Positions 21,005 through 53,954 of a stretch of 64,000 nt of DNA are shown here, piece after piece. The notes under the pieces were generated by a model. That model ran no database searches. It had not been told where the DNA came from and worked only from the letters and a program-made list of their open reading frames with translations. Origin of the DNA: Pseudomonadota bacterium (GTDB taxonomy: Bacteria > Pseudomonadota > Alphaproteobacteria > JACQOE01); contig JACQOE010000029.1 of NCBI GenBank assembly GCA_016202695.1, forward strand, positions 61,332 through 125,331. Reading direction: 5' to 3'. The translations under genes were made by a program, and so were the position numbers. Positions within the stretch are counted from its first letter, which is position 1, and each line of letters opens with the position of its first letter.

Positions 21005-21225
21005 CGGGCGCCCCCCTCTGTCTCGGGACCTGAAAGATTCACCCGCGCGGATGCGGGTTTACATCTTCGGTGAGGCGCCTGCCTGCGCCTGCTTTCCAGA
21101 GTGTCATCGCCCTGCGGTCCTTTTGCCTGAGAGTTTCGGGGGCCCGTTGCTCCTTCGGCGCCGGCCGCGGCCGAGTCCGTCCGCAAATGGGACGCCCTCG
21201 CCCGCCGGTCTCTCCCGCAGGGGTC
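21005..21225 (-). promoter_or_regulatory. Tandem glycine riboswitch (two aptamers) in gcvT leader
   Basis: Reverse complement reads GGGAGAGACCGG...GGCGCCGAAGGAGCAACGGG...GAAACTCTCAGGCAAAAGGACCGCAG (aptamer 1) then CTCTGGAAAGCAGG...CACCGAAGATG...CTTTCAGGTCCCGAGACAGAGG (aptamer 2), matching the glycine-riboswitch consensus; boundaries approximate. Confidence 0.8.
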
Positions 21226-21340
21226 GTATGACTCCTCGCCGCCGGACCCCTCGCCCCGAGGGCGCGCGATCCGCCAGCACCACCCAGTTTAGTCCCTCTC
21301 CGGCCAACGTCAATGCCACCCCGGCGCGGACCCGGCAAGG

Positions 21341-41629: not shown

Positions 41630-42424
41630 CTACATGTACCCGCCGCCGCGCAGCCGCTCGACGGCGTCCTCGGCCTCGTGGTCCATGGCGCGGCCCGCGC
41701 GCTCGGCGACACGGGTCGTCTCCAGCTCGGTGATGATCTCGTCCAGGCTCGCGGCGGTGCTGGCGATCGGGGTCGTGGCGTCGGAATCGCCGAGCGAGCG
41801 GTAGCGCCGGCCGGCGCGCGCGAAGTAGAGCTCGACCACGGGGATGCCCTCGCGCCGGATGTAGCGCCACACGTCGACCTCGCCCCAGTGCAGGAGCGGA
41901 TGGACGCGAAGGTGGGCCCCGGGCGCCACGCCGGTCTTGAACTGGTCCCAGAACTCGGGCGGCTGGTCGCGCGAGTCCCATCCGCCCCTGGCCCCGCGCG
42001 GGCTGAAGACGCGCTCCTTGGCCCGCGTCGGCTGCTCGTCGCGGCGAATTCCGGCGACGACTCCGACGAAGCCGTGGCGCTCGATCAGGCGCCTGAGACC
42101 CGCCGACTTGCGCGCCGCCAAGCGGGCGGCGGGAGGCAGCGTCGGGTCCATCTCCTCGACCGGCGGGCAGTCGCCGACGATCAGATCGAGCCCCCACTCC
42201 TTCGCATAGCGGTCGCGAAAGGGGCGCGTCTCGGGGAACTGCGTGCCGGTGTCGATGTGCAGCACCGGAAAGGGAACGTGCCCGAAGAACGCCTTGCGGG
42301 AGAGCCAGACGAGGACGGTGGAGTCCTTGCCCGACGACCACAGGAGGGCGATCGGCTTCAGCCGGCTGAAGGCCTCGCGCAGGACATAGACGCTCTGGCT
42401 CTCGAGGGCATCCAGGTGGTCCAT
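41630..42424 (-). CDS. cysD: Sulfate adenylyltransferase subunit 2
   Basis: Start at Met461 of track ORF (MDHLDALESQS...); PAPS-reductase-like SGKDS motif. Confidence 0.9.
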   Translation of the reverse strand: MDHLDALESQSVYVLREAFSRLKPIALLWSSGKDSTVLVWLSRKAFFGHVPFPVLHIDTGTQFPETRPFRDRYAKEWGLDLIVGDCPPVEEMDPTLPPAARLAARKSAGLRRLIERHGFVGVVAGIRRDEQPTRAKERVFSPRGARGGWDSRDQPPEFWDQFKTGVAPGAHLRVHPLLHWGEVDVWRYIRREGIPVVELYFARAGRRYRSLGDSDATTPIASTAASLDEIITELETTRVAERAGRAMDHEAEDAVERLRGGGYM

Positions 42425-42636
42425 GGGAATCTTCGAGACTCCTCGGGCTCGGTCCGGGCCGGAGAGGCGGCCGGGTGAGGCGCCCGGCCCTTGGGGACAG
42501 CACGAAACCACCCTGCACAAGGGATTGCAACCAAAACCGGTGTGGGAGCGGCGATCATCCTCGGCCGGGGCTGGGACGGGGTCGCGGGCGGCGGCCGCGC
42601 GACCCGCGGCGCGGGCCGGACGCCTCGCGAAACGGC

Positions 42637-43794
42637 TCAGATGGAGAGGCCAGGATCGAGCAGGCGGCCCTTCAGGCTGTCCTCGAAGGTCTGCAGCCGC
42701 ACGAACGACTTGATCTGATCGGCGATGCGGGCGTGATACTGGCGCCGTTGGTCGGGGTCGAAGAGGGTGGTCTCCGCGCTCTCGCGGTGGAAGTTGGCCG
42801 AGCGGAAGCCCACGTCGGCGGCGTGGACAAGGCGCTCGCGGGCGCCGCGCACCTTCCCCGACATCTCGGCCAACGCCAGCTCGGCGGTTGCGACGTCGGA
42901 CTCGGCGCTCGCCGCATTGGCCGCGGTGGTGAGGTCGGCGGTGCGGAGCCCGGCCGCGAGCACGCCGCTGAACGTGGGCTCGAGGTCGAGCGACACGGTG
43001 TCCTCGGCCGCCGCGTCGCGCCCGACCTGGACGTCGAAGCCGCGCGCGCTGATCGTGCCCGATACCGTGAGGTCGGCGGCATCGACCGCCGGGTCGATAT
43101 CGGTGCCGGGATCGAAGTTCTCGTTGATGGTGATGGTGAGGGCGAGGTCGCGAATGGGAACGGCGCGCGTCTGGCCCGCGGCCGGCGCCGTCGTCACCGC
43201 CTCGGAAACCGCCTGAACCCCGGTGGTGGTGTTGGTCACCGTGAACCGGTTGGTGGTGCTGCTGTAGGCCACCTCGAGCACATCGCCGTCGGCGAGGGCG
43301 CCGTTGGTGGGATTGGAGAAGGTGAAGCCGGCAAAGCCGTTCGCCGCCGAGAGGTCGGCCCCCACCGAGGTGGCGCTGAAGGAGGCGATCCCGGCAAGCA
43401 GGAACACCCTGTCTGCCTCGATGTTGGCCGCGGTTTCGTCGATCTGGGAACGGAGCGAGCGGAACTCCTGATCGAGGAGCGAGCGGTCGTAATCGGAGAG
43501 ATCGTCCTCGGCCGCCGACTGGGCCAAATCCTCGATCTGCCCGAGCAGCTCCTCGATCACGTCGAACCCTTCGATCGCCTTGGCCAGCGTGCCGTTGGCG
43601 TCGGCGCCGTTCTGCGCCCCCTGGGCGATGAGGACGCCGGCCGCGCTCAGCCGGTTGGCGAGGAGCCCGGTGACGGTGTTGAGGTCGCTGTTGCGGGCGT
43701 AGAACGGGTCGAACCGGCGCTCCGGCTCGAACGCCCGGTCGAAGGTGGCCGCGATCTGCGACTGGTTCAGCCTGAGGGATACGACATCGACCAT
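42637..43794 (-). CDS. Flagellin/FlgL-like protein (N-terminal flagellin helical domain), orphan
   Basis: ...IAQGAQNGADANGTLAKAIEGFDVIEELLGQIEDLAQSAAEDD...LLDQEFRSLRSQIDETAANIE... resembles flagellin D0/D1 N-terminal region; Thr/Ser/Asp-rich variable middle; start at Met41 (MVDVVSLRLNQ). Confidence 0.5.
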   Translation of the reverse strand: MVDVVSLRLNQSQIAATFDRAFEPERRFDPFYARNSDLNTVTGLLANRLSAAGVLIAQGAQNGADANGTLAKAIEGFDVIEELLGQIEDLAQSAAEDDLSDYDRSLLDQEFRSLRSQIDETAANIEADRVFLLAGIASFSATSVGADLSAANGFAGFTFSNPTNGALADGDVLEVAYSSTTNRFTVTNTTTGVQAVSEAVTTAPAAGQTRAVPIRDLALTITINENFDPGTDIDPAVDAADLTVSGTISARGFDVQVGRDAAAEDTVSLDLEPTFSGVLAAGLRTADLTTAANAASAESDVATAELALAEMSGKVRGARERLVHAADVGFRSANFHRESAETTLFDPDQRRQYHARIADQIKSFVRLQTFEDSLKGRLLDPGLSI

Positions 43795-43984
43795 GGTGAG
43801 CCACGTCTCACCCGGCACGTTCCCGTAAGGGCCTCGCCCCCACGGCGCATCCTGCTCGAAAGGCCGGTTCACGGCCCGCCCATCCTGGGAAGGCCGGATC
43901 GTCCTTGCGGACAATCTATCTCGCTCTCTTCACCTCTCCCACGCGAGGGGCCCCGCCCACCGGGATCCCCTGTAAAAACAGCTA

Positions 43985-44013
43985 ATATTAATAAATGGGA
44001 AGCCGCCCCGCAA
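43985..44013 (-). promoter_or_regulatory. Putative sigma70-type promoter (minus strand TTGCGG-17-TAATAT) in AT-rich spot upstream of flagellin-like gene
   Basis: Reverse complement gives TTGCGG at 44013-44008, 17-nt spacer, TAATAT at 43990-43985; only AT-rich island in this region. Confidence 0.3.
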
Positions 44014-44049
44014 CCGCCAACCCCCCTGCCCCTGCCCCGGGAGCCGCCC

Positions 44050-44670
44050 TCAGCGCCCGCCGACCGGGGGCTTGCGGGTGAGGTCGGCCAAGAAGGCGCG
44101 GAAGATTCCGCCCACCGCCTGGCCGTAGGCGGCCACCGTCGCCGGGATGCCGGACTCGGCCGCCGGCCGCTCGGCCCGGTAGACCTGGATGACCTCGAGC
44201 CCGCGCTCGCCCCCCTGGCCGACGCCGAGCTCGAGCTCGACCAGGACCGAAGCGCCGGTCGCGCCGACGAGGCGCTCGAGGCGGCGGATCTTGCCGGTCA
44301 GCACATAGGGCGCGCCGGCGCGCTGCTCGGAGGTGATCACGGCGCGGGCAATGTTCGCCTGGCGGAGGAACGCCACCAACTCTTCCTGCAGGAGCCGCGA
44401 GGGGGGCTCGACCCAGTAATGGTAGTCGTAGCGGTCGAGCTCGAAGCTCGCCTCGCGCCGTGAGAAGAGGAGGGCCCGCTCGGCCAGGAGCCCGTCGGCG
44501 AGGAAGCGGCGCACCTCCAGGGCCCCGTCGAAGAGGGGGGCGGAGAGCGCCCGCTCGGGCGGCGCCACCTCCAGCCGGTAGTAGTGATCGCGCGGCACCG
44601 GGGCCGAGCCCCCGCATCCCCCGACCGGGAGCGCCAGGGCCAGGACGACAATGAGGCGCGCCGCCCTCAT
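44050..44670 (-). CDS. ABC-transporter auxiliary lipoprotein (PqiC/YmbA-like, DUF330)
   Basis: Lipobox LALPVGGC; DHYYRLE motif typical of PF03886; 4-nt overlap with MCE gene. Confidence 0.75.
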   Translation of the reverse strand: MRAARLIVVLALALPVGGCGGSAPVPRDHYYRLEVAPPERALSAPLFDGALEVRRFLADGLLAERALLFSRREASFELDRYDYHYWVEPPSRLLQEELVAFLRQANIARAVITSEQRAGAPYVLTGKIRRLERLVGATGASVLVELELGVGQGGERGLEVIQVYRAERPAAESGIPATVAAYGQAVGGIFRAFLADLTRKPPVGGR

Positions 44671-45725
44671 GGCCCTCCTCCTCCCCCCGGTGCCGACTCC
44701 GACGCGCCCTCCAGCTTCGTTCCCTGCAGCAGCACGCTTGGGTTGCTGCGGATCTGGCGACTGAACTCGTAGACGTTGCGGCTGGCCCCTTCCAGGTTGT
44801 TGGCGATGGCGTCGATCCGGCCAGCGAGCGACTCGAGCACATGGCGCATGTCGCCCATCGAGGCGCCCACCGCTCCGGCGTTCTCGTCGGCGATCCGGTT
44901 GAGCGAGGCGATGAGCTTGCCGAGATCATCCAGGCTCGCGCGCATATCCTCGATGAGGTGGCCGAAGCCCTCGGAGGAGGTCTGCATGTTCCCGATCACC
45001 CCCTCGATCCGGGCCATGTTCTCCGCGGAGAGAAGCTCGTTGAGGCGCGCGCTCGATCGGTTGAGGGTGGAGAGGAAGCCCTTGAGGTCGCGGGAAACCG
45101 CGGGCGAGGACTCGGCGAGGTCGGAGACGATGCGCCGGAGGTTGTCGGTGACATCGACCACCGCCGGCTCGACCACGGTCCCGACCCCGTCGACCATCGC
45201 GGTGATGCGCTCGACGAGCGGCTTGATGCGGTTGCGCGAGAGGTCGGTCACCTCCTCGGCGACCGAGGTCATGAGCGCGAGCATGTCGCCGCCCGGCTCG
45301 CTGGCGATCCGCGCCCCGCGCTCGAGGTAGGTGCCGCTCCGGCCGCCGCGGATGTCGATGACCAGGGCGGAGAGGAGCCCCGGGGCCGAGATGCGGGCGA
45401 TACTGTCGGCGGGAACCTGCCAGCCCGAGATCACGCTCGCCTCGACCCGGAAGCGGAGCTTGCCATCCTCGGTGATCGGCTCGATGTGCTCGATCTGGCC
45501 GACCGGGAACCCCTCGTAGAGAACCTGCGAGCCGAACTTGAGGCCGGCGACGTTGTCGAAGACGATTGAGTAGCGGTCGGTGGTGCCGGCCCGGCCGGTC
45601 AATACGGCAAGCACCACCACGAATACCGCCAGCATGACGAGCACGACGCTGCCGACGACGATATAGTTGATGCGGCTGCTGCGCATGGCGCGGCCGAGCG
45701 CCCCCTTCCCGCCCTGCTCCTGCAC
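44667..45725 (-). CDS. MCE-family substrate-binding protein (MlaD-like) with extended C-terminal helical region
   Basis: N-terminal TM + MCE domain (YSIVFDNVAGLKFGSQVLYEGFPVGQIEHIE); GTG start sharing 1 nt with MlaF stop. Confidence 0.85.
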   Translation of the reverse strand: MQEQGGKGALGRAMRSSRINYIVVGSVVLVMLAVFVVVLAVLTGRAGTTDRYSIVFDNVAGLKFGSQVLYEGFPVGQIEHIEPITEDGKLRFRVEASVISGWQVPADSIARISAPGLLSALVIDIRGGRSGTYLERGARIASEPGGDMLALMTSVAEEVTDLSRNRIKPLVERITAMVDGVGTVVEPAVVDVTDNLRRIVSDLAESSPAVSRDLKGFLSTLNRSSARLNELLSAENMARIEGVIGNMQTSSEGFGHLIEDMRASLDDLGKLIASLNRIADENAGAVGASMGDMRHVLESLAGRIDAIANNLEGASRNVYEFSRQIRSNPSVLLQGTKLEGASESAPGGGGGP

Positions 45726-46546
45726 TACCCCTCGCCGGTCAGTCGGCGGAGGTAGGCATCGGCGTCGAGTGTAGCCTCCTCCGAGCGCCGGTTCAGCAGA
45801 TTCTGGATGCGCGGATTGGGACTCGCGCGCACCTCCTCGACGCTGCCCACCATCAGGATCTCGCCCCGGTCGAGCACGATCAGGCGATCGGCGATCTTCA
45901 AGGCGCTCTCGAGCTCGTGGGTGACCACGACGATGGTGATGCCGAGGGCGTCGCGGAGCTTGAGGATCAGGTCGTCGAGCTCGGCCGCCACTATTGGGTC
46001 GAGGCCCGCCGAGGGCTCGTCGCAGAAGAGGAGCTTGGGGTCCATGATGATCGCCCGAGCGAAAGCCGCGCGCTTGGTCATGCCGCCCGAGAGCTCGGAG
46101 GGCATCAGGCCCTCGAAGCCGGCGAGCCCGACCACCTCGAGCTTCATGCGGGCCATGATCCGCATGGTGCGCTCGTCGAGGTCGGTGTGCTCGCGCAGGG
46201 CCAGCATGATGTTCTCGCCGACGGTCATCGAGCTGAAGAGCGCACCGCCCTGGAAGGCCACCCCCATGTGTTTGCGCAGTTCCGCGAGTTCCGGTCCCTT
46301 GAGGCGGCCAAGATCGCGCCCGAGCACCTTGACCGTGCCCGCGTCCGGCGTCTCGAGGGCGATGAGCTGGCGCAGGAGCGTGCTCTTGCCCGAGCCGCTG
46401 CCGCCCATGATGACCATGATCTCGCCGTCGTAGATGTCGAAGCTCACCCCTTTCAGGATGGTGCGCTCGCCGTAGCGCACCACCACGTTCTCGACCTCGA
46501 TCACCCTCGGCCGGCCCTCGGCCACGGCGAGCGGAAGGGCACCCAT
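45725..46546 (-). CDS. ABC transporter ATP-binding protein (MlaF-like)
   Basis: Start at internal Met (MGALPLAVAEG...), Walker A GGSGSGKST, signature LSGGM, Walker B LLFCDEP. Confidence 0.9.
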   Translation of the reverse strand: MGALPLAVAEGRPRVIEVENVVVRYGERTILKGVSFDIYDGEIMVIMGGSGSGKSTLLRQLIALETPDAGTVKVLGRDLGRLKGPELAELRKHMGVAFQGGALFSSMTVGENIMLALREHTDLDERTMRIMARMKLEVVGLAGFEGLMPSELSGGMTKRAAFARAIIMDPKLLFCDEPSAGLDPIVAAELDDLILKLRDALGITIVVVTHELESALKIADRLIVLDRGEILMVGSVEEVRASPNPRIQNLLNRRSEEATLDADAYLRRLTGEG

Positions 46547-47346
46547 CAGCGGCTCACGACGAAGGCGAAGATCATGTCGGTGATGACGATCGCGCTGATC
46601 CCGTGTACGACCGAGCGGGTGGTGGCGCGGCCCACGCCTTCGGCGCCGCCGCGCACCGAGGCCCCGTTGACCGCACCGACCAGGGTGATGAGGACGGCGA
46701 AGATCAGGCTCTTGCCGAGCCCGTGGAAGAGATCGTCGGTGGTGATCGAGTCGATGCAGGCATCGGTGTACGCCGCGAGCGACATACCCAGCTCGATCGC
46801 GACGTAGAGCCCGCCGCCAAGAATGGCGACGAGGTCGGCGTAGAAGGTGAGCACCGGCAGCATCACCACCATGGCGAGGAGCGCCGGCGCGACCAGGAAG
46901 CGCACTGGGTTGACCGCCATCGTGGTGAGAGCGTCGATTTCCTGGTTGATGGTCATGGTCCCGAGCCGGGCGGCGATCGCCGACCCCGAGCGCCCCGTCA
47001 CCAGGATGCCGGTGATGAGGGGCGCGAACTCGCGGGTGACCGAGAGCGCAATGCCCAGAGTCACCCGGTCCTCGGCCCCGAAAATCCTGAGGGTGTAGAT
47101 GCCCTGGATCGCGAGCATGACGCCGATGGTGAGCGAGAGCACGGTGACGATGGGAAGCGCGAGGATGCCGATCTCCATCATCTGCACGAAGACGGAGCCG
47201 ACGCGCACCGGCTGGCGCCGGCGCCTGCCCATCAGCGTCCAATAAAGACTCTCGGCGAAGAGCGCGCCGGCGAAGCCGAGGTCGGCAAGCCCGCGCGCGG
47301 TCGCCCGCCCGACCTGCTCGGCGACATCGGCAAGCGGCCGCAGCAC
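46546..47346 (-). CDS. ABC transporter permease (MlaE-like)
   Basis: MlaE/Ttg2B family pattern (...QMMEIGILALPIV...EIDAL...). Confidence 0.9.
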   Translation of the reverse strand: MLRPLADVAEQVGRATARGLADLGFAGALFAESLYWTLMGRRRRQPVRVGSVFVQMMEIGILALPIVTVLSLTIGVMLAIQGIYTLRIFGAEDRVTLGIALSVTREFAPLITGILVTGRSGSAIAARLGTMTINQEIDALTTMAVNPVRFLVAPALLAMVVMLPVLTFYADLVAILGGGLYVAIELGMSLAAYTDACIDSITTDDLFHGLGKSLIFAVLITLVGAVNGASVRGGAEGVGRATTRSVVHGISAIVITDMIFAFVVSR

Positions 47347-47350
47347 CCGC

Positions 47351-47683
47351 TCAGCCGCCGCTGGCGAGCGCCTCGGCGACGCTCGCGTGAATCGCGAAGA
47401 CCTTGTCGAGGCGCGCCAGGCTCAGGACCCGCATGGCGGCGGGACTCACCGCCGCGAGCGCCAAGCGCCGGCCCCTGAGCCGCGCCGCCTGAAGCGCCTC
47501 GACCAGGCTGGCGATGCCGGAGGAGTCGATGTAGGTGATCCGAGCCATGTCGACGAGCACGTCGCGGCCGCGTCCGACCGCCTTCAGCAGCACCTCTCGC
47601 GCCTCGGGCGAGCTGTCGAGGTCGACGTCGCCCTCGAGCGTAACCACGAGCGTGGCGCCGTCCTCGCGGAGCTGGTGTTTCAT
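47351..47683 (-). CDS. STAS-domain protein (anti-sigma-factor antagonist fold; MlaB position) with phosphorylatable DSSG motif
   Basis: 110 aa; ...ARITYIDSSGIASLVEA... = conserved SpoIIAA/RsbV phospho-Ser loop; 4 nt upstream of MlaE start, overlaps kinase stop. Confidence 0.85.
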   Translation of the reverse strand: MKHQLREDGATLVVTLEGDVDLDSSPEAREVLLKAVGRGRDVLVDMARITYIDSSGIASLVEALQAARLRGRRLALAAVSPAAMRVLSLARLDKVFAIHASVAEALASGG

Positions 47684-48183
47684 GGCCTCTCCCCCTCGGC
47701 CTTTCCCGCCGCCGCCCCGGTCGGTGCGATCCTTTTGACCATGCGCAGCAGGTTGCCACCGCCGGCGGGGCGCGGCAGGAAGGCGACCTCGTCCATCACC
47801 TCTCGGATCAGATGCGTGCCAAGCCCTCCCGGCCTCAGCTCGTCGAGGTCGCGGGGCCTGACCCGGCGCTCGTCCACCGGCGGGGCGAAGTCGCGGAGCT
47901 CCACCGCCACCCGATCGCCCTCCCGTCGCATCGTCAGCACAATCTCGCCGTCGGGCCGCCCCGAATAGGCGTGGCGGATGACGTTCTGACAGGCCTCGTC
48001 GACCGCGAGCACGATGTCATGGACCGCGTCCTCGCTGCAACCGGTCGAGCGCACCGCCGCCGCCACCGCGGCACGGACCATCTTCAGCCGGTCGGGAAGG
48101 GAGCGGAAGCGAAGCTCGAACAGCGTCTCGGCCGCGGCGCCCTCCGCTAGCGAAGGCTCGGCCCGGGTGGGGTTGGCCGCCAC
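47680..48183 (-). CDS. RsbW/SpoIIAB-like serine protein kinase (HATPase_c anti-sigma regulatory factor fold)
   Basis: GTG start (codon 62 of track ORF) after GAGGGG RBS, 12 nt after phosphatase stop; VHDIVLAVDEACQNVIRHAY N-box; G-boxes LRDFAPP...GGLGTHLI. Confidence 0.75.
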   Translation of the reverse strand: MAANPTRAEPSLAEGAAAETLFELRFRSLPDRLKMVRAAVAAAVRSTGCSEDAVHDIVLAVDEACQNVIRHAYSGRPDGEIVLTMRREGDRVAVELRDFAPPVDERRVRPRDLDELRPGGLGTHLIREVMDEVAFLPRPAGGGNLLRMVKRIAPTGAAAGKAEGERP

Positions 48184-48194
48184 GCCCGCGCCCC

Positions 48195-49481
48195 TCAGGC
48201 TCCGTCCACGGCGACCAGGGTGAGGTCGTCGTGGATCTCGCCGCCCGCGGGGCAGAGACGGTCGACGACGATTCTGAGGAGTTCCGGAGAGGTGAAGCGC
48301 CCCGCAAGCTCGGCGATCATCGCCGTCAGCCCCTCTGCCCCCAGGCGCCCGCCGCCCGGCAGCCAAGCCTCGGTGACGCCGTCGCTGAAGACGTAGAGGG
48401 TGCCGCCTCCCAGCTCCAGCTCGCTCACCGGGGGGCCGGTCTCGGGAATCAGGTTGGCGGCGATGCCGAGCGGCGGCACGCTCGCCGGAAGGGCGGTGAA
48501 GCGGCCCCCGCGGGCGCGGAAGAGTGGCGGCTCATGGCCGGCATTGGCCAGGCGCACCCGGCGGCGCGAGGGATCGAGCACGCCGCAGACCATGGTGACG
48601 AACATCCCTCGCGTCACTGTCTCGCAGATCTCGGCGTTGACTCGGGCGATCAGTCGGCCGGGATCGTGGACCTCCTTGCCGAGGCAGCGAAAGACGCTCG
48701 CGGTCTTGGCCATGAGGAGCGCGGCGTTCATGCCCTTGCCGGAGACGTCGCCGAGGGCGAAGCAGACGCTGCCGTCGGCGAGCGGGAAGAAGTCGTAGAA
48801 GTCGCCGGAGACGCACCGCGCCGGCTGGTTGGCGCCGCAAACGGGAAAGGGAACCGGACGGGGAGCGGGAAGAAGGTTCCTCTGGATCTCGGCGGCCAGC
48901 TCCAGCTCGCGGCGCATGCGCTGCTGCTCGACCAGCTCGGCCGACATCTGCGCGTTCATCACCGCCAGCGCCGCGGCCGAGGCGAGCGCCTGAACGAGGT
49001 GGCGGTCGCGCTCGTCGAAAAGCCCGCCGCCGCGCTTGTTGATCAGCTCGATCGCGCCCAGGCAGAGGTCGCCGTGGCCCAAGGGCGCGCACAGGATCGA
49101 GCGGGTGGTGAAGCCGGTGAGCTTGTCGACCGCCTTGCCGAACTGCGGATCCTTCGACACGTCGCGGACCATCTGCGTCTCGAGCTCGCGGATCGAGCGT
49201 CCGACGATGCCGCCGTCGGCGGGGAGCCTGAGCCCGGTGATGTCGACCGGGCCGAAGCAGGCCCGGCAGACCACCGCCGTGCCGTCCTCATCGAGAAGGA
49301 AGAGCGAGGAGGCCTCGGCGCTCACCTGATCGGCGATTCGCTTCAGACCGCGCCGGAGGGTCGCCTCGACGTCGAGGGTCCGGGCGAAGTCGTGGATGAG
49401 GTCGGCGAGGAGGTGCAGACATTCGAACACCTCCTCGGCCGCCGCGGAATGCGCGCTTGCCGCCCGGTTGCTCGCCGACAT
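48195..49481 (-). CDS. GAF-domain PP2C/SpoIIE-type serine phosphatase (RsbU/RsbP-like)
   Basis: N-terminal GAF (…LFLLDEDGTAVVCRACFGP…ILCAPL…); C-terminal PP2C (…SGDFYDFF…GDVSGKG…DDLTLVAV). Confidence 0.85.
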   Translation of the reverse strand: MSASNRAASAHSAAAEEVFECLHLLADLIHDFARTLDVEATLRRGLKRIADQVSAEASSLFLLDEDGTAVVCRACFGPVDITGLRLPADGGIVGRSIRELETQMVRDVSKDPQFGKAVDKLTGFTTRSILCAPLGHGDLCLGAIELINKRGGGLFDERDRHLVQALASAAALAVMNAQMSAELVEQQRMRRELELAAEIQRNLLPAPRPVPFPVCGANQPARCVSGDFYDFFPLADGSVCFALGDVSGKGMNAALLMAKTASVFRCLGKEVHDPGRLIARVNAEICETVTRGMFVTMVCGVLDPSRRRVRLANAGHEPPLFRARGGRFTALPASVPPLGIAANLIPETGPPVSELELGGGTLYVFSDGVTEAWLPGGGRLGAEGLTAMIAELAGRFTSPELLRIVVDRLCPAGGEIHDDLTLVAVDGA

Positions 49482-49566
49482 GACGCCACTATGCCTGCTC
49501 CAGAGGCAGGCGTAAATCGGGCCGGCAGGCCCGTCGACGGTTTCCGGCCGAAAGCGCGGCCGGCCC

Positions 49567-49929
49567 CTACTCGCCTTCGATCTCGCGCTCCTCGGCGACG
49601 TGATCGACCATGTCGGTGAGCACGGCGCGGATGTGCTCGTCGGCGACCAGGTAGAACACCTGGCGCCCCTGGCGCTGCGCCTGCAGCAGCCGCGCCGCGC
49701 GCAGGAGCCGGAGGTGGTGGCTGACCAGCGACGGCGAGAGCTTGAGCTTGCTCGCCATCTCGCCCACCGAGACCTGCTGATGGAGGCAGGTGAGGATGAT
49801 GCCCAGCCGGGTGGGATCGCTCATCAGCCGGAAGACCTCGGCCAGTTCGACGACCTCGTCCTCGCCCAGCCGCGGCCCGGTCACCGTCGGCGAGGCGGGG
49901 TTCTTCAACACGGGAACGCCCTTCGGCAC
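49567..49929 (-). CDS. ArsR/SmtB-family metalloregulatory transcriptional repressor
   Basis: wHTH ...AEVFRLMSDPTRLGIILTCLHQQVSVGEMASKLKLSPSLVSHHLRLLRAARLL... Confidence 0.85.
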   Translation of the reverse strand: MPKGVPVLKNPASPTVTGPRLGEDEVVELAEVFRLMSDPTRLGIILTCLHQQVSVGEMASKLKLSPSLVSHHLRLLRAARLLQAQRQGRQVFYLVADEHIRAVLTDMVDHVAEEREIEGE

Positions 49930-50097
49930 CGCGATAGTCCTTAAAGTCCAATCCTTTGGCCGCGCATCCTAGCCCTCGCCCGGCGCCGCCGCAACCCGGG
50001 ACGCGCATGATTCGGGCCTTGAAATCGAGCCCGATTTGGATAATAAAAAGGATCGAAAAACGGGAAAATCAAAAGTAACCGGAAATACTTCTATTCC

Positions 50098-50160
50098 TGT
50101 TCATCTGTAAATTTGAACATCAATGCAAACATGTATGCTGTTCATCTGTACATATGAACA
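50098..50160. promoter_or_regulatory. Two 22-bp palindromic operators TGTTCA-N10-TGAACA (50098-50119 and 50139-50160) in ArsR/MCO divergent region
   Basis: TGTTCATCTGTAAATTTGAACA and TGTTCATCTGTACATATGAACA, centres 41 bp apart, inside an AT-rich 250-bp intergenic region. Confidence 0.5.
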
Positions 50161-50207
50161 CCCGTTTGAAAGTCGCGCGAGACGAGAGAGAGCGGGAGGG
50201 CGACGGA

Positions 50208-51377
50208 ATGGCTGAAACGGGAACCGGGGCGAGACGGGCGAGATGGGCGCCGCGGCCGGCGGCCACGCGCCCGGCGCTCGAGGTGTCGCGCCGGGGCATG
50301 CTCCTGGGCGGTTTAATCGGCTCCGCCGGGGCGCTCCTTCCGCGGCTTGCCCGGGCCGACGCCGCGGCGGCGGCCACGGCGAGCCCGGGCGCCCCCTACC
50401 CGGCGGCGGGCGCGCATGCCAGCGGCGGAGCGATGGACCACGGTGGCATGATCACGGTCGGCAACGTCGATTCGGCGCGCAACGGCTTCGACCCGCACGA
50501 CCTCCTCGCCGACTTCACCACCGGTGCAATTTCGACCCTGGCCGGCGGCCGGCGGCTTCGCCAATTCGAGGTCGTCGCCGAGGACAAGGAGATCGAGGTC
50601 GCTCCCGGGGTATTCTTCCCGGCCTGGACCTTCAACGGCCGGGTGCCAGGTCCCACCCTCCGGGTGAGCGAGGGAGACCGGGTGCGCATCCGCTTCGTCA
50701 ACCACGGCTCGCATCCCCACTCGATCCACTTCCACGGCATCCACAGCGCGCGCATGGACGGCGTGCCCGGCGCCGGCCTAGTCGAGCCGGGGGGCGAATT
50801 CGTCTACGAGTTCGACGCCTTCCCCTTCGGCTGCCACCTCTACCACTGCCACGCGGTGCCCCTGAAGCGGCACATCCACAAGGGCCTCTACGGCGCCTTC
50901 ATCGTCGACCCCGACCCGGCCCGCCACCCCGAGCACGCCGAGGCCGCCCGCTCGCGGCTCCTCGGCGCGCCCGAGAACGCGCGCTGGCAGGAGCTGGTGA
51001 TGGTGATGAACGCCTTCGACACCAACTTCGACGAGGAGAACGAGGTCTACGCGGTCAACACCGTTGCCCACGCCTACGCGAGGAGGCCGATCCCGCTCGA
51101 CCGCCAAAGGCCGGTCCGCGTCTACCTCGTCAACGTCACCGAGTTCGACCCCATCAACTCGTTCCACCTCCACGCCAACTTCTTCGACTACTACGACCAT
51201 GGCACCACGCTGACGCCGACGCTTAGGACGGTCGACACCGTGATGCAGTGCCAGGCGCAGCGGGGGATTCTCGAGTTCTCGTTCAAGGACCACGAGCCCG
51301 GACTCTACATGTTCCACGCCCACCAGTCGGAATTCGTCGAGCTCGGCTGGATGAGCTTCTTCGAGGTGCGGCCATGA
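50208..51377 (+). CDS. Tat-secreted multicopper-oxidase-type cupredoxin protein
   Basis: Start at Met19 after GGGAGGG RBS; twin-arginine SRRGMLLGG; copper sites HSIHFHGIH, LYHCHAV, HAHQSE. Confidence 0.85.
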   Translation: MAETGTGARRARWAPRPAATRPALEVSRRGMLLGGLIGSAGALLPRLARADAAAAATASPGAPYPAAGAHASGGAMDHGGMITVGNVDSARNGFDPHDLLADFTTGAISTLAGGRRLRQFEVVAEDKEIEVAPGVFFPAWTFNGRVPGPTLRVSEGDRVRIRFVNHGSHPHSIHFHGIHSARMDGVPGAGLVEPGGEFVYEFDAFPFGCHLYHCHAVPLKRHIHKGLYGAFIVDPDPARHPEHAEAARSRLLGAPENARWQELVMVMNAFDTNFDEENEVYAVNTVAHAYARRPIPLDRQRPVRVYLVNVTEFDPINSFHLHANFFDYYDHGTTLTPTLRTVDTVMQCQAQRGILEFSFKDHEPGLYMFHAHQSEFVELGWMSFFEVRP

Positions 51378-52547: not shown

Positions 52548-53954
52548 ATGAGTGAGCGAGCGGCCCTCGGGATCAAGCTGCCGCCGGCCGCGGCGGCGGG
52601 GACTGCGGCCCCCCTCGGCATCTGGGCGCCGCTCGCCGACTCCGCGGACGCGCGGCCGGCCGTCCCCAGCCTCGCCGAGGTCTACCGGAGCATCCCCGTC
52701 GCCCGTGACGCGCCCTTCTGGCGCCGGGCGATCGCCTTCGCCGGGCCCGGTTACCTAGTTGCCGTCGGCTACATGGACCCCGGCAACTGGGCGACCGACA
52801 TCGCCGGCGGCTCGGCCTTCGGCTATACGCTGCTTTCGGCGGTGCTGCTGGCCAGCCTGCTCGCCATCCTCTTCCAGGCGCTCGCCGCCAAGCTCGGCAT
52901 CGCCACCGGGCTCGATCTCGCCCAGGCCTGCCGGCGCCATTACAGCCGGCCAGTGGCGCATGCCCTCTGGCTCTTGGCCGAGACCGCGATCTGCGCCACC
53001 GACCTCGCCGAGGTGATCGGCACCGCGGTCGCGCTCAACCTCCTGTTCGGCATCCCGATCCTGGCCGGGGTCGTGATCACCGCGCTCGACGTGCTCCTGA
53101 TCCTCGCCCTTCAGGCCCGCGGCTTTCGCCACCTCGAGGCCTTCGTGATGACGCTCCTGGTGATCATCGCCGGCTGCTTCGCCTTCCAGGTGGCGCTCTC
53201 GCGCCCCGATCTCGCCGCCCTGTTCGGCGGCTTCCTGCCCTCGGCCGAGGTGGTGCGCAACCCGGCGATGCTTTACATCGCCATCGGCATCCTCGGCGCC
53301 ACCGTGATGCCCCACAACCTCTACCTCCACTCCGCGATCGTGCAGACGCGGGGCTTCGAGGAGAGCGAGCGCGGCCGGCGCGACGCGATCCGCCTCGCCA
53401 CCGTCGACAGCACCATCGCGCTCAGCCTCGCCCTGGTCATCAACGCCAGCATCCTGATCGTCGCCGCGGCCGCGTTCCATGCCGCCGGCCAGACCGAGGT
53501 GACCGAGATCCACCAGGCCTACGGGATGCTGGCGCCGCTCCTCGGCGTGCCGGCGGCCGCCACCGCCTTTGCCGTGGCCCTGCTCGCCGCCGGACAGAAC
53601 TCGACGGTGACCGGCACGCTCGCCGGCCAGGTGGTGATGGAGGGGTTCCTCGACATCCGCCTGCCGCCCTGGCTCAGACGCCTCGTGACCCGCGCGATTG
53701 CGATCGTCCCGGCGGTGGCGGTGACGGCGCTCTACGGCGAGAGCGGCACGGCCAAGCTCCTGATCCTGAGCCAGGTGGTGCTCAGCCTCCAGCTCCCCTT
53801 CGCGGTGGTGCCGCTGGTGCTGTTCACGAGCGACCGCGCCAAGATGGGCCGATTCGTGAACCGGCGCTGGCTCGCCCTGCTCGCCTTCGCCGCGGCGAGC
53901 GTGATAATTGCGCTCAACGTGAAGCTGGTGGCCGATTTCGCCGGCGCCCTCTGA
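52548..53954 (+). CDS. mntH: NRAMP-family divalent metal (Mn2+/Fe2+) transporter
   Basis: [17 protein letters not shown] signature, 11-12 TM. Confidence 0.9.

Follow-up and report, generated by a model that had tools for sequence, protein, structure and literature searches.

What does a STAS-domain protein with a potential phosphorylation site control when its gene lies between those of a predicted serine kinase and a predicted lipid-transporter permease? This arrangement occurs in the window, by which we mean the whole 64-kb stretch of DNA that was analysed. The regulation of Mla-type lipid transporters and the purpose of MlaB, their STAS subunit, are open questions in the field. The placement of the STAS and kinase genes, together with a phosphatase gene, directly upstream of an envelope lipid-transporter operon recurs in dozens of bacterial species and suggests a transporter that is switched by phosphorylating an MlaB-like subunit. 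The genes belong to a tightly packed cassette of seven, encoding a phosphatase, a kinase, the STAS protein, MlaE, MlaF, a long MlaD and a PqiC-like lipoprotein, with the following features.

48195..49481, minus strand: GAF-PP2C (SpoIIE/RsbU-type) serine phosphatase, 428 aa (Pfam SpoIIE and GAF)
47680..48183, minus strand: RsbW/SpoIIAB-type serine kinase (HATPase_c_2), 167 aa, GTG start (Pfam, phmmer)
47680..47683, minus strand: ATGA overlap of kinase stop and STAS start, translational coupling (read in the sequence)
47351..47683, minus strand: free-standing, full-length STAS protein of the RsbV/SpoIIAA type, 110 aa, ATG start (TIGR00377, Pfam STAS)
47522..47524, minus strand: codon of Ser54, the predicted phospho-acceptor and first Ser of DSSG (alignment)
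46546..47346, minus strand: MlaE/MpcE-type ABC permease, 266 aa, GTG start (Pfam MlaE, 227 bits)
45725..46546, minus strand: MlaF-type ABC ATPase, 273 aa, ATG start (PRK11831, phmmer)
45728..45769, minus strand: C-terminal tail of MlaF, LDADAYLRRLTGEG (mafft against E. coli MlaF)
44667..45725, minus strand: long MlaD/MpcD-type MCE protein, 352 aa (Pfam MlaD)
44050..44670, minus strand: PqiC/MpcA-like outer-membrane lipoprotein (ABC_trans_aux), 206 aa (PF03886)

The kinase GTG at 48183 sits 11 nt past the phosphatase stop, 4 nt separate the STAS stop from the MlaE GTG, the MlaE stop and the MlaF ATG have one base in common, and the lipoprotein start overlaps the MlaD stop as ATGA. An overlap of this kind between the kinase stop and the STAS start had been claimed in the original prediction and is real: in ccATGAaa, the kinase stop (47682-47680) overlaps the STAS ATG (47683-47681). 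That prediction also placed the STAS protein in the "MlaB position". The gene does share an operon with MlaE, MlaF and MlaD, but the term is loose: the STAS gene is immediately 5' of mlaE, whereas in E. coli the mlaFEDCB operon ends with mlaB. Neither the GAF-PP2C phosphatase upstream of the kinase nor the seven-gene cassette figured in it.

Gene calling on identical metagenome contigs yields the same 167-aa kinase, 110-aa STAS protein and 266-aa MlaE. STAS and MlaE are encoded as two ORFs that differ in frame, and are likewise separate in ~77 related loci. A frameshifted STAS-MlaE fusion that only appears to be split is ruled out, because the split, with a STAS ORF of 106-113 aa, recurs in all related loci. 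Scans of positions 43600-50400 detected no promoter-like sites, and terminator-like sites only at chance level; both scans are uninformative for this high-GC genome. Rfam and tRNA scans produced no match in or near the operon.

The STAS protein matches Pfam STAS (PF01740; 70.5 bits against a cut-off of 22.6, E = 1.2e-19) and the NCBIfam anti-sigma-factor antagonist family TIGR00377 (71.2 bits, cut-off 53.45). Residues 47-63, ARITYIDSSGIASLVEA, contain the sequence YIDSSG. In phmmer alignments, D53-S54-S55-G56 pairs with DSSG of G. stearothermophilus SpoIIAA and DSTG of B. subtilis RsbV, Ser54 is at the phospho-acceptor position also in the alignment to TM1442, and T52 of E. coli MlaB (VDTGG) is the counterpart of S54 both with the family HMM (hmmsearch) and with mafft. 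The claim that the protein keeps the SpoIIAA/RsbV phospho-serine loop is thereby upheld, and an alignment that might have placed the serine elsewhere instead puts it exactly at the acceptor of SpoIIAA, RsbV and TM1442, and at MlaB T52. YIDSSG is unchanged in 120 of 120 database homologues and in 82 of the 82 sequences of the locus-derived alignment. This position and its invariance are observed directly; phosphorylation of Ser54 is inferred, with no biochemical evidence.

An AF2 model of the STAS protein (pLDDT 95.5) has the topology b1-b2-a1-b3-a2-b4-a3-b5-a4 (E2-8, E11-20, H25-36, E41-52, H54-69, E74-77, H81-89, E97-99, H102-107), and in this model helix alpha2 (H54-69) has Ser54 as its N-cap. 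Foldseek places RsbV (6m36), TM1442 and SpoIIAA first, with TM scores of 0.83-0.90, and MlaB ranks 36th and lower, with 0.59-0.64. The protein scores 21.7 bits with the MlaB family NF033618, below its threshold of 90, and phmmer retrieves MlaB chains from the PDB with E values of 0.007-0.04. By sequence and predicted fold it is therefore classed here as an antagonist of the RsbV/SpoIIAA type and not as an MlaB-family protein. The STAS domain of MlaB is minimal, with four strands and three helices but neither beta5 nor alpha4 (Kolich 2020, PMC7367683). Since the window protein has both elements and falls outside the MlaB family, binding to MlaF is not simply transferable by homology. Its single-sequence similarity is at most 38 bits to the STAS domains fused to MlaE in related operons, and 36.5 and 32.9 bits to SpoIIAA and RsbV; because the scores to both groups are similar, its ancestry, as an MlaB-like lineage or an RsbV-like recruit, remains undecided. 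The label "anti-sigma B factor antagonist", which these STAS proteins carry in the source annotations, is probably misleading. A tblastn search with the STAS protein against a plasmid collection found no match.

The kinase spans the whole of Pfam HATPase_c_2 (105.5 bits, model positions 1-127 of 127) and is related by phmmer to B. subtilis RsbW (5.6e-11) and SpoIIAB (2e-06); its best named NCBIfam matches are anti-sigma-B RsbW and anti-sigma-F, all below cut-offs. The N-box consists of E63, N67 and H71, and the G2 box is P118-G-G-L-G122. D98, P118, G119, G120 and G122 are present in 80 of 80 orthologues, E63, N67, A100 and L121 in 79 and H71 in 78, and on this pattern the N-box, the G1 aspartate and the intact G2 box appear to be under strong purifying selection. 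The G1 box reads D98-F-A100-P-P, in which the Asp is invariant and Ala replaces the first Gly of the canonical DxGxG. The original prediction would have failed had the kinase lacked ATP-binding boxes, and it is not refuted: the N-box, the G1 Asp and a perfect G2 box are there, but the Ala in G1 is not canonical, and some doubt about the kinase boxes remains. The accompanying statement that canonical MlaB has no kinase partner agrees with the literature (Kolich 2020, PMC7367683).

The phosphatase matches Pfam SpoIIE (139.9 bits, residues 236-425) and, toward its N terminus, Pfam GAF (52 bits, residues 37-174). The PP2C motifs GDFYD, GDVSGKG, SDGVTE and DDLT are kept in 77 phosphatase orthologues. 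The domain identities of these proteins and the conservation of their catalytic motifs are direct observations. The closest relatives of the GAF domain are the cNMP-binding GAF domains of PDE5, PDE2 and CyaB2 (E ~1e-20); the ligand itself is only inferred. We presume that the GAF-PP2C protein is both the sensor and the phosphatase of phosphorylated STAS.

The downstream genes encode a transporter of the Mla/Mpc family. No protein of the cassette is more conserved than MlaF (median 69% identity), which scores 202 bits with PRK11831, under the curated cut-off of 441 bits, and matches MlaF of A. baumannii (1.8e-58) and E. coli (1.7e-52) in phmmer searches. In E. coli, the MlaF C-terminal extension docks at the MlaF-MlaB interface, with a role for Y261, L265 and L266 (Kolich 2020, PMC7367683). 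In a mafft alignment, the Y and L of DAYLRRL in the window MlaF align with Y261 and L265 in AGDYHADLL of the E. coli protein, and the tail is kept in 75 orthologues. MlaD has a single N-terminal MCE domain (Pfam MlaD, residues 50-127), scores 87 bits with TIGR00996, under the curated cut-off of 140.5, and can be described as a TM helix, one MCE domain and ~180 aa of predicted helices; a single-sequence AF2 model of low confidence (pLDDT 54.6) predicts a helix at 9-43, strands within 51-124 and helices within 147-327. The long MlaD of Mpc transporters has a helical "needle" at its C terminus (Lannoy 2025), of which the helices within 147-327 are at best a weak indication. The lipoprotein matches PF03886 (ABC_trans_aux) with 42.4 bits against a cut-off of 26 and has a lipobox-like N terminus (...LALALPVGGC).

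The window MlaE is without the N-terminal STAS domain carried by its nearest relatives beyond the clade of the cassette. Among the 150 best cluster representatives of MlaE relatives, 93 reach a length of 340 aa or more, and an N-terminal STAS domain is present in 86 of these 93. Two examples of such fusions were checked, and both lie in MlaE-F-D-lipoprotein operons without kinase or phosphatase. The fused STAS domains are also without beta5 and alpha4, and the tail of MlaF is different in the fusion operons. At the acceptor position, the fused, kinase-less domains are variable (S in 43, T in 22, G in 12, A in 4 and D in 3). In the sequences compared, acceptor invariance thus tracks the presence of the kinase: the residue is invariant wherever there is a kinase, and variable in the fused domains that have none.

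We surveyed the conservation of the cassette in the best 80 species-level genomes of at least 596 genome matches; a set of 85 loci comprises these 80 genomes and five contigs. Gene order and fusions could be observed directly. In the best 80 species-level genomes, STAS is preceded by the kinase in all 78 assessable loci and by a PP2C protein in 75 of 76, MlaE is directly 3' of STAS in 77 of 80, and MlaF is on the same strand in 73 of 79. All six partners are colinear in 62 of the 80, and most of the others are cut by contig ends. Median intergenic gaps within the cassette are 8-9 nt, and the gap between kinase and STAS in related loci is short or negative (median 9 nt). The genes flanking the cassette vary between loci. 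Conservation across the best 80 species genomes rules out a chance adjacency of module and transporter. An ArsR regulator gene upstream is ruled out as a member of the cassette, being present in only two of 80 loci. In three of the 80 loci no Mla operon follows the module, and in one of these a transposase comes next. Phosphatase and kinase form a single in-frame ORF in 51 of the 85 loci, an architecture that leaves STAS as the only diffusible element.

Three gammaproteobacterial genomes show a variant arrangement, in which a PP2C-kinase protein and STAS precede a canonical set of MlaE, MlaD (148 aa), MlaA and MlaC. MlaE of this variant is 41% identical to E. coli MlaE versus 36% to the window MlaE. 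The variant MlaF is 61% identical to the window MlaF and 40% to that of E. coli, and carries a related tail (EEYLARLT). Judged by these identities, the module travels with a clade of MlaF across two transporter architectures.

We conclude, with a probability of roughly 0.6, that the GAF-PP2C phosphatase, the RsbW-type kinase and the RsbV-type STAS protein constitute a partner-switching phospho-module whose output is an Mla/Mpc ABC lipid transporter and not a sigma factor. The strongest argument for an MlaB-like role of the STAS protein is comparative, and consists of the conserved cassette and the STAS-fused nearest relatives of MlaE. One such relative, Brucella MpcE with its fused STAS, co-purifies in the MpcEFDA complex, described as an "Mla-Pqi chimeric" transporter (Lannoy 2025, PMC12436622), from which a STAS domain in this place is taken to be a transporter subunit. 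A more specific proposal, which we consider about as likely as not, is that a phosphorylatable STAS protein shuttles between a kinase and the transporter ATPase, and that a cytoplasmic small-molecule signal read by the GAF domain, possibly a cyclic nucleotide, gates inter-membrane lipid trafficking post-translationally. This would represent a new class of partner-switching output.

In the proposed mechanism, unphosphorylated STAS would bind the helical subdomain of MlaF and the MlaF C-terminal tail through the helical face centred on Ser54, as MlaB does in E. coli, and might thereby stabilise or activate the MlaF2E2 motor. The kinase would bind the same face and phosphorylate Ser54, so that STAS is ejected from MlaF and transport decreases. 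On a small-molecule signal, possibly a cyclic nucleotide, the GAF-regulated PP2C domain would strip the phosphate from Ser54. Both the binding of STAS to MlaF and the sign of regulation are inferred, without biochemical evidence, and the alignment and conservation of the MlaF tail are only indirect evidence for binding through it. Experiments on E. coli MlaB bear on this proposal: T52 lies in the middle of the surface that MlaB shares with MlaF, and MlaF is bound less well by the phosphomimetic T52E mutant (Kolich 2020, PMC7367683). The T52A mutant has lost function but not MlaF binding, and the role of T52 is therefore not purely steric. The same study raised phosphorylation of T52 as a possibility with no kinase in hand, there being no experimental evidence of MlaB phosphorylation in E. 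coli, and called MlaB regulation an open question.

An alternative is that the switch is centred on the kinase. Either the free RsbW-like kinase or its counterpart domain in the fused proteins might bind and inhibit MlaF, MlaE or another transporter component, with STAS merely sequestering the kinase and never touching the transporter. This is the classical logic of RsbW and SpoIIAB, in which RsbV frees SigB from RsbW; the STAS protein is of the RsbV type by sequence and fold, and the conserved linkage to Mla genes is equally compatible with it. However, homologous transporters have a permease-fused STAS or a free MlaB bound to MlaF, and no kinase, so that STAS appears to be the ancestral transporter-binding element. 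The kinase is also tethered to a GAF-PP2C portion of ~420 aa in 51 of 85 loci, which would make it an awkward stoichiometric inhibitor, and we regard a kinase acting on the transporter as unlikely. That the kinase instead has no activity, and is a pseudokinase or scaffold with a degenerate G1 box, would make STAS a constitutive MlaB-like subunit in which DSSG serves only structure or binding. The D-F-A-P-P sequence in place of DxGxG allows this, T52 of MlaB is kept without a known kinase, and some RsbW homologues leave their antagonists unphosphorylated, as is reportedly the case for UsfX of M. tuberculosis. Yet 78 to 80 of 80 orthologues keep E63, N67, H71, D98 and the entire G2 box, and the acceptor Ser is invariant only where a kinase is present. 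Moreover, a PP2C domain with all metal-binding motifs is beside or fused to the kinase in 75 of 76 assessable loci, and its retention would be pointless without a phospho-substrate. The absence of a phosphorylation cycle is accordingly very doubtful.

It is also conceivable that the module is an ordinary sigma-factor switch, with the kinase as the anti-sigma factor of a sigma factor whose gene lies elsewhere, and with the Mla/Mpc genes only sharing the transcript, for example in an envelope-stress response. The named family matches of the kinase, although below cut-offs, and the antagonist annotation of STAS point this way, and some multidomain PP2C-kinase proteins regulate sigma factors; Rv1364c of M. 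tuberculosis is said to be one. A phmmer search with FliA, RpoS and RpoE found no sigma-70-family ORF in the 64-kb window, which does not exclude a sigma factor encoded elsewhere. Sigma-like ORFs lie within ~8 kb in only three of the 85 loci, all of them ECF-like and none adjacent. The transporter genes are the only conserved neighbours, the module follows the MlaF clade across two architectures, and the STAS gene occupies the place of the MlaE-fused STAS in relatives. A sigma factor as the real target is hence quite improbable, and the preferred reading remains that of a partner-switching module acting on the transporter.

If this reading is correct, the cassette would embody, in nature, the phosphoregulation of MlaB that has been postulated, though never detected, in E. 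coli. It supplies a dedicated kinase, phosphatase and sensor domain that are hard-wired to the transporter in many species, and makes the MlaB phosphorylation hypothesis directly testable with four purified proteins. An ABC transporter would join the short list of non-sigma outputs of partner switching. In evolutionary terms, the same role would be filled by a fused STAS domain without a kinase or by a free STAS protein with a kinase and phosphatase. In the literature on Mla/MCE lipid transport together with partner switching, we found this linkage undescribed, apart from the speculation by Kolich; a review of STAS domains (PMC8256260) leaves Mla unmentioned, and a phylogenomic survey of Veillonella leaves kinases and phosphatases unmentioned.

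The RsbU-RsbV-RsbW and SpoIIE-SpoIIAA-SpoIIAB modules of B. subtilis comprise the same three families with the same acceptor serine, their kinase and STAS genes are translationally coupled, as in the window, and it is RsbV and SpoIIAA that the window STAS protein most resembles in fold. The window module differs in that no sigma gene is associated with it, the conserved partners being ABC transporter genes, and in its GAF sensor, in the Ala for Gly in G1, and in phosphatase and kinase often being one polypeptide. Partner-switching-like modules with non-sigma outputs reportedly include HsbR/HsbA of Pseudomonas and BtrU/V/W of Bordetella, and we know of no report that either targets an ABC transporter or lipid-trafficking machine. 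The sensor domain of HsbR, and of SypE in Vibrio fischeri, is a REC domain, where the window module has GAF. In the SypE/SypA system (PMC10120452) and in the HenR/STAS module of Anabaena (PMC13555669), which regulates a glycosyltransferase, a bifunctional or paired kinase and PP2C set the phospho-state of a free STAS protein, and this protein is the effector on a non-transcriptional target, as proposed here; neither is reported to target an ABC transporter or lipid-trafficking machine.

Among lipid transporters, E. coli MlaFEDB (Thong 2016; Kolich 2020) resembles the window system in that MlaE, MlaF and MlaD are encoded together with a STAS protein of one domain, a Ser or Thr (S54 or T52) starts helix alpha2, and Tyr and Leu residues occur in the C-terminal tail of MlaF. 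E. coli MlaB is a minimal STAS without a known kinase or phosphatase, whereas the window protein is full-length and has a dedicated kinase and phosphatase. MpcEFDA of Brucella abortus has the same order of permease, ATPase, long MCE protein (331 versus 352 aa) and PqiC-like lipoprotein, is likewise without MlaC or MlaA, and has a STAS module immediately N-terminal to the permease. Judging from these shared features, the window transporter is of the Brucella Mpc type, minus the fusion of STAS to the permease. Brucella and most relatives have a STAS domain that is part of MpcE, belongs to the short MlaB type, varies at the acceptor and occurs without kinase or phosphatase, whereas the window STAS protein has a gene of its own, behind those of a PP2C phosphatase and a kinase, and its DSSG is invariant.

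The STAS gene is the third of seven closely packed, co-oriented genes, all on the minus strand:

49481..48195 (-), GAF-PP2C phosphatase, the first gene (SpoIIE 139.9 bits, GAF 52 bits)
48183..47680 (-), RsbW-type kinase (HATPase_c_2 105.5 bits), GTG start, 11 nt past the phosphatase stop
47683..47351 (-), STAS protein, ATGA overlap with the kinase gene
47346..46546 (-), MlaE permease, GTG start, 4 nt past the STAS stop
46546..45725 (-), MlaF ATPase, one base common to its ATG and the MlaE stop
45725..44667 (-), MlaD/MCE protein of 352 aa, 1-nt overlap with the MlaF gene
44670..44050 (-), ABC_trans_aux (PqiC-like) lipoprotein, ATGA overlap with the MlaD gene

The original prediction of a 110-aa STAS ORF with a DSSG loop at 47683..47351 (-) is confirmed, and the ORF contains ARITYIDSSGIASLVEA. 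The ATGA overlap proposed between the kinase stop and the STAS start is also real (ATG at 47683-47681, TGA at 47682-47680, context ccATGAaa). Gene callers gave the same gene models (167, 110 and 266 aa) on identical metagenome contigs. In the window the phosphatase and kinase are split into two genes in different frames, and the only support for a "needle" in MlaD is a single-sequence model of low confidence.

An ArsR/SmtB-family metalloregulator gene is located 85 nt upstream of the phosphatase gene (49929..49567, minus strand; NF033788 78 bits, CmtR-like). It adjoins metal-related genes for a Cu oxidase and Nramp (52548..53954), and therefore probably belongs with these and not with the cassette; of the 80 species-level loci, just two (L009 and L013) have such a regulator beside the cassette. 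The strikingly AT-rich intergenic region 49930..50153 separates it from a divergent multicopper-oxidase gene (50154..51377, plus strand). Two copies of a 13-nt direct repeat, TACAGATGAACAG in the minus-strand reading, occur there (50150-50138 and 50109-50097), and are possibly the operator of this regulator. Downstream of the cassette are a flagellin-like gene (42637..43914, minus strand; Flagellin_N 28 bits) and a CysD-like PAPS_reduct gene (41630..42520, minus strand), in an order identical to that in a related complete MAG chromosome, OZ271840.1 (L001). Tandem glycine riboswitch aptamers (RF00504) at 21014..21227 (minus strand; 63.4 bits at 21105-21227 and 43.6 bits at 21014-21103) are unrelated to the cassette.

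The STAS protein matches Pfam STAS (E = 1.2e-19) and the NCBIfam anti-sigma-factor antagonist model TIGR00377 (71.2 bits, cut-off 53.45). It fails tests of MlaB membership, scoring 21.7 bits with the MlaB model NF033618, below the cut-off of 90. Its AlphaFold model, built with 27 homologues (pLDDT 95.5), has the full SpoIIAA topology b1-b2-a1-b3-a2-b4-a3-b5-a4. The top Foldseek matches of this model are RsbV (6m36), TM1442, 4hyl and SpoIIAA (TM 0.83-0.90), and MlaB chains rank 36th or lower (TM 0.59-0.64). On these family scores and this ranking, the protein is, by sequence and predicted fold, an RsbV/SpoIIAA-type antagonist and lies outside the MlaB family.

SpoIIAB and RsbW phosphorylate the first serine of a D-S-x-G motif. 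In phmmer alignments with PDB sequences, residues D53-S54-S55-G56 align to DSSG of Geobacillus stearothermophilus SpoIIAA, DSTG of Bacillus subtilis RsbV and DSAG of TM1442, and S54 is placed at the N-terminus of alpha2 in the AlphaFold model. T52 of Escherichia coli MlaB pairs with S54 (family HMM and mafft); a structurally equivalent phospho-Ser/Thr was described by Kolich et al. (PMC7367683). The observed invariance of YIDSSG extends to 120/120 database homologues and 82/82 sequences of the locus-derived alignment.

Motifs of the kinase were assigned according to the N-box, G1 and G2 definitions of the GHKL fold, and their conservation among 80 orthologues was observed directly. E63 and N67 of the N-box are present in 79 and H71 in 78. 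The G1 box, D-F-A-P-P, is atypical: D98 is invariant (80/80), and A100, at the position of the first glycine in DxGxG, is found in 79, with Gly in the remaining orthologue. In the G2 box, P118, G119, G120 and G122 are kept in all 80 and L121 in 79. This pattern makes ATP binding by the putative kinase plausible, yet not all of the boxes are canonical. The PP2C motifs GDFYD, GDVSGKG, SDGVTE and DDLT are kept across 77 phosphatase orthologues. The GAF domain of the phosphatase (48900..49420, residues ~20-190) is closest to the cyclic-nucleotide-binding GAFs of PDE5, PDE2, PDE6 and cyanobacterial CyaB2 (E ~1e-20 to 1e-16), and holds INKRGGGLFDERD, an NK...F..D stretch resembling the NKFDE motif. 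These similarities suggest that the sensed signal may be a cyclic nucleotide; the ligand is inferred, as a lead and not a demonstration.

Scanning for YIDSSG[VI]AS with one genome per species revealed at least 596 encoded relatives, of which the top 80 were retrieved. Linkage was observed among their assessable loci. The kinase is upstream of the STAS gene in 78/78 and GAF-PP2C in 75/76, MlaE is directly downstream in 77/80, and MlaF follows on the same strand in 73/79. The long MlaD (69/75) and the lipoprotein (67/72) are likewise usual, and all six partners are colinear in 62 of 80 loci, with contig ends accounting for most of the shortfall. Median intergenic gaps are 9 nt (kinase-STAS) and 8 nt (STAS-MlaE), and the genes flanking the cassette vary from locus to locus. 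Hosts among these 80 are labelled mostly as Rhodospirillales and other Alphaproteobacteria, with some MAGs labelled Deltaproteobacteria, Myxococcota or Gammaproteobacteria. GAF-PP2C and kinase form one ORF of ~580-590 aa in 51 of 85 loci (80 species genomes and five contigs), as in L002 (6226..7989) and L003, and an independent gene caller reported a 587-aa GAF-SpoIIE-HATPase_c_2 protein. One locus (L033) has kinase and STAS genes without GAF-PP2C upstream. In three loci the module lacks a downstream Mla operon: L062 (10274..11506) has a Mutator-family transposase ~2 kb downstream of the STAS gene, L078 (8346..9089) an APS kinase after it, and L055 (3991..5562) an FHA-like protein and a second PP2C on the opposite strand (recognized by eye from the translation, without a family search).

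The transporter is of the same type as Brucella abortus Mpc, in which MpcE, MpcF, the needle-bearing MpcD (331 aa) and the PqiC-like MpcA co-purify as one complex (PMC12436622). At its N-terminus MpcE bears a STAS domain, a homologue of MlaB, and the mpc operon consists of four genes only (PMC12436622). When the window's MlaE was searched against 1.84 billion cluster representatives, its relatives fell into two tiers. The closest (>=47% identity) are 255-272 aa, and the next (35-47% identity) are mostly 355-418 aa, with the MlaE match beginning near residue 105-165. Long forms make up 93 of the 150 best representatives, and in 86 of these 93 the N-terminal extension matches the window's STAS-family HMM, so most of the nearest MlaE relatives appear to be fusions of this kind. 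In two fusions checked in their contigs, STAS-MlaE is followed by MlaF, MlaD and ABC_trans_aux, and neither a kinase nor a phosphatase is upstream; the MlaD is 338 aa in L089, the only one of these contigs to reach that far. The window's free STAS gene thus occupies the exact place that the fused STAS domain takes in relatives, and its product is likely a transporter subunit.

The fused domains are short, with HMM matches ending at position <=99 of 110 (median 84), and like MlaB they lack the last strand and helix. Their acceptor position varies (S 43, T 22, G 12, A 4, D 3); it is invariant everywhere the kinase is present. Since the window's STAS protein scores <=38 bits against fused domains, no higher than against SpoIIAA or RsbV, its evolutionary origin remains undecided from sequence comparison.

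Three gammaproteobacterial loci, L064 (6242..12159), L077 and L080, carry a fused PP2C-kinase and a 110-aa STAS protein before a canonical MlaE, a 148-aa MlaD, MlaA and MlaC, with MlaF convergent and nearby. The L064 MlaE is 36% identical to that of the window and 41% to that of E. coli; for MlaF, the values are 61% and 40%. L064 MlaF also retains the C-terminal tail of the window's MlaF clade, EEYLARLT. In fusion-type operons, MlaF shares only 49-51% identity with its counterpart in the window and ends in other tails. The kinase, the phosphatase and the STAS protein therefore stay with this MlaF clade over two different periplasmic architectures, which points to MlaF as the target of the module.

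We propose that unphosphorylated STAS protein would bind MlaF in the manner of MlaB and support its ATPase. The kinase would bind the same helical face of STAS, phosphorylate S54 and free STAS, and GAF-PP2C would undo this phosphorylation upon a signal. Phosphorylation, the STAS-MlaF contact and the sign of regulation are inferred; there is no biochemical evidence, and we assign the mechanism as a whole a probability of about 0.6.

The kinase, always upstream of the STAS gene where this could be assessed, might itself contact the transporter in place of STAS; set beside the kinase-less STAS-MlaE operons, we consider this unlikely. The antagonist-type STAS protein could also belong to a conventional anti-sigma system whose sigma factor is distant. 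Against this, phmmer searches of all ORFs >=90 aa with E. coli FliA, RpoS and RpoE found no sigma factor in the window, and over the 85 loci only three ECF-like ORFs, none adjoining the module; we see only a slim chance for this explanation. Least credible to us is a pseudokinase with STAS as a constitutive subunit, a reading that the atypical G1 box favours and the invariance of the acceptor serine in the presence of the kinase opposes. The phospho-switched STAS-MlaF mechanism fits data on E. coli MlaB, in which T52 occupies the middle of the contact surface with MlaF, a T52E substitution reduces binding, and MlaF becomes less stable on the complex once MlaB is lost (PMC7367683). A caveat is that T52A is non-functional though it keeps MlaF binding (PMC7367683).

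Our full-text literature searches turned up no account of a kinase/phosphatase module in linkage with Mla or Mpc transporters, and we expect moderate surprise among specialists in Mla and partner switching. Phosphoregulation of MlaB has been proposed without evidence for it (PMC7367683), and this stated open question becomes directly testable. Both halves of the cassette, the partner-switching module and the Mla/Mpc transporter, are of known kinds, and partner-switching-like modules with outputs other than sigma factors include SypE/SypA (PMC10120452) and an Anabaena module whose target is a glycosyltransferase (PMC13555669).
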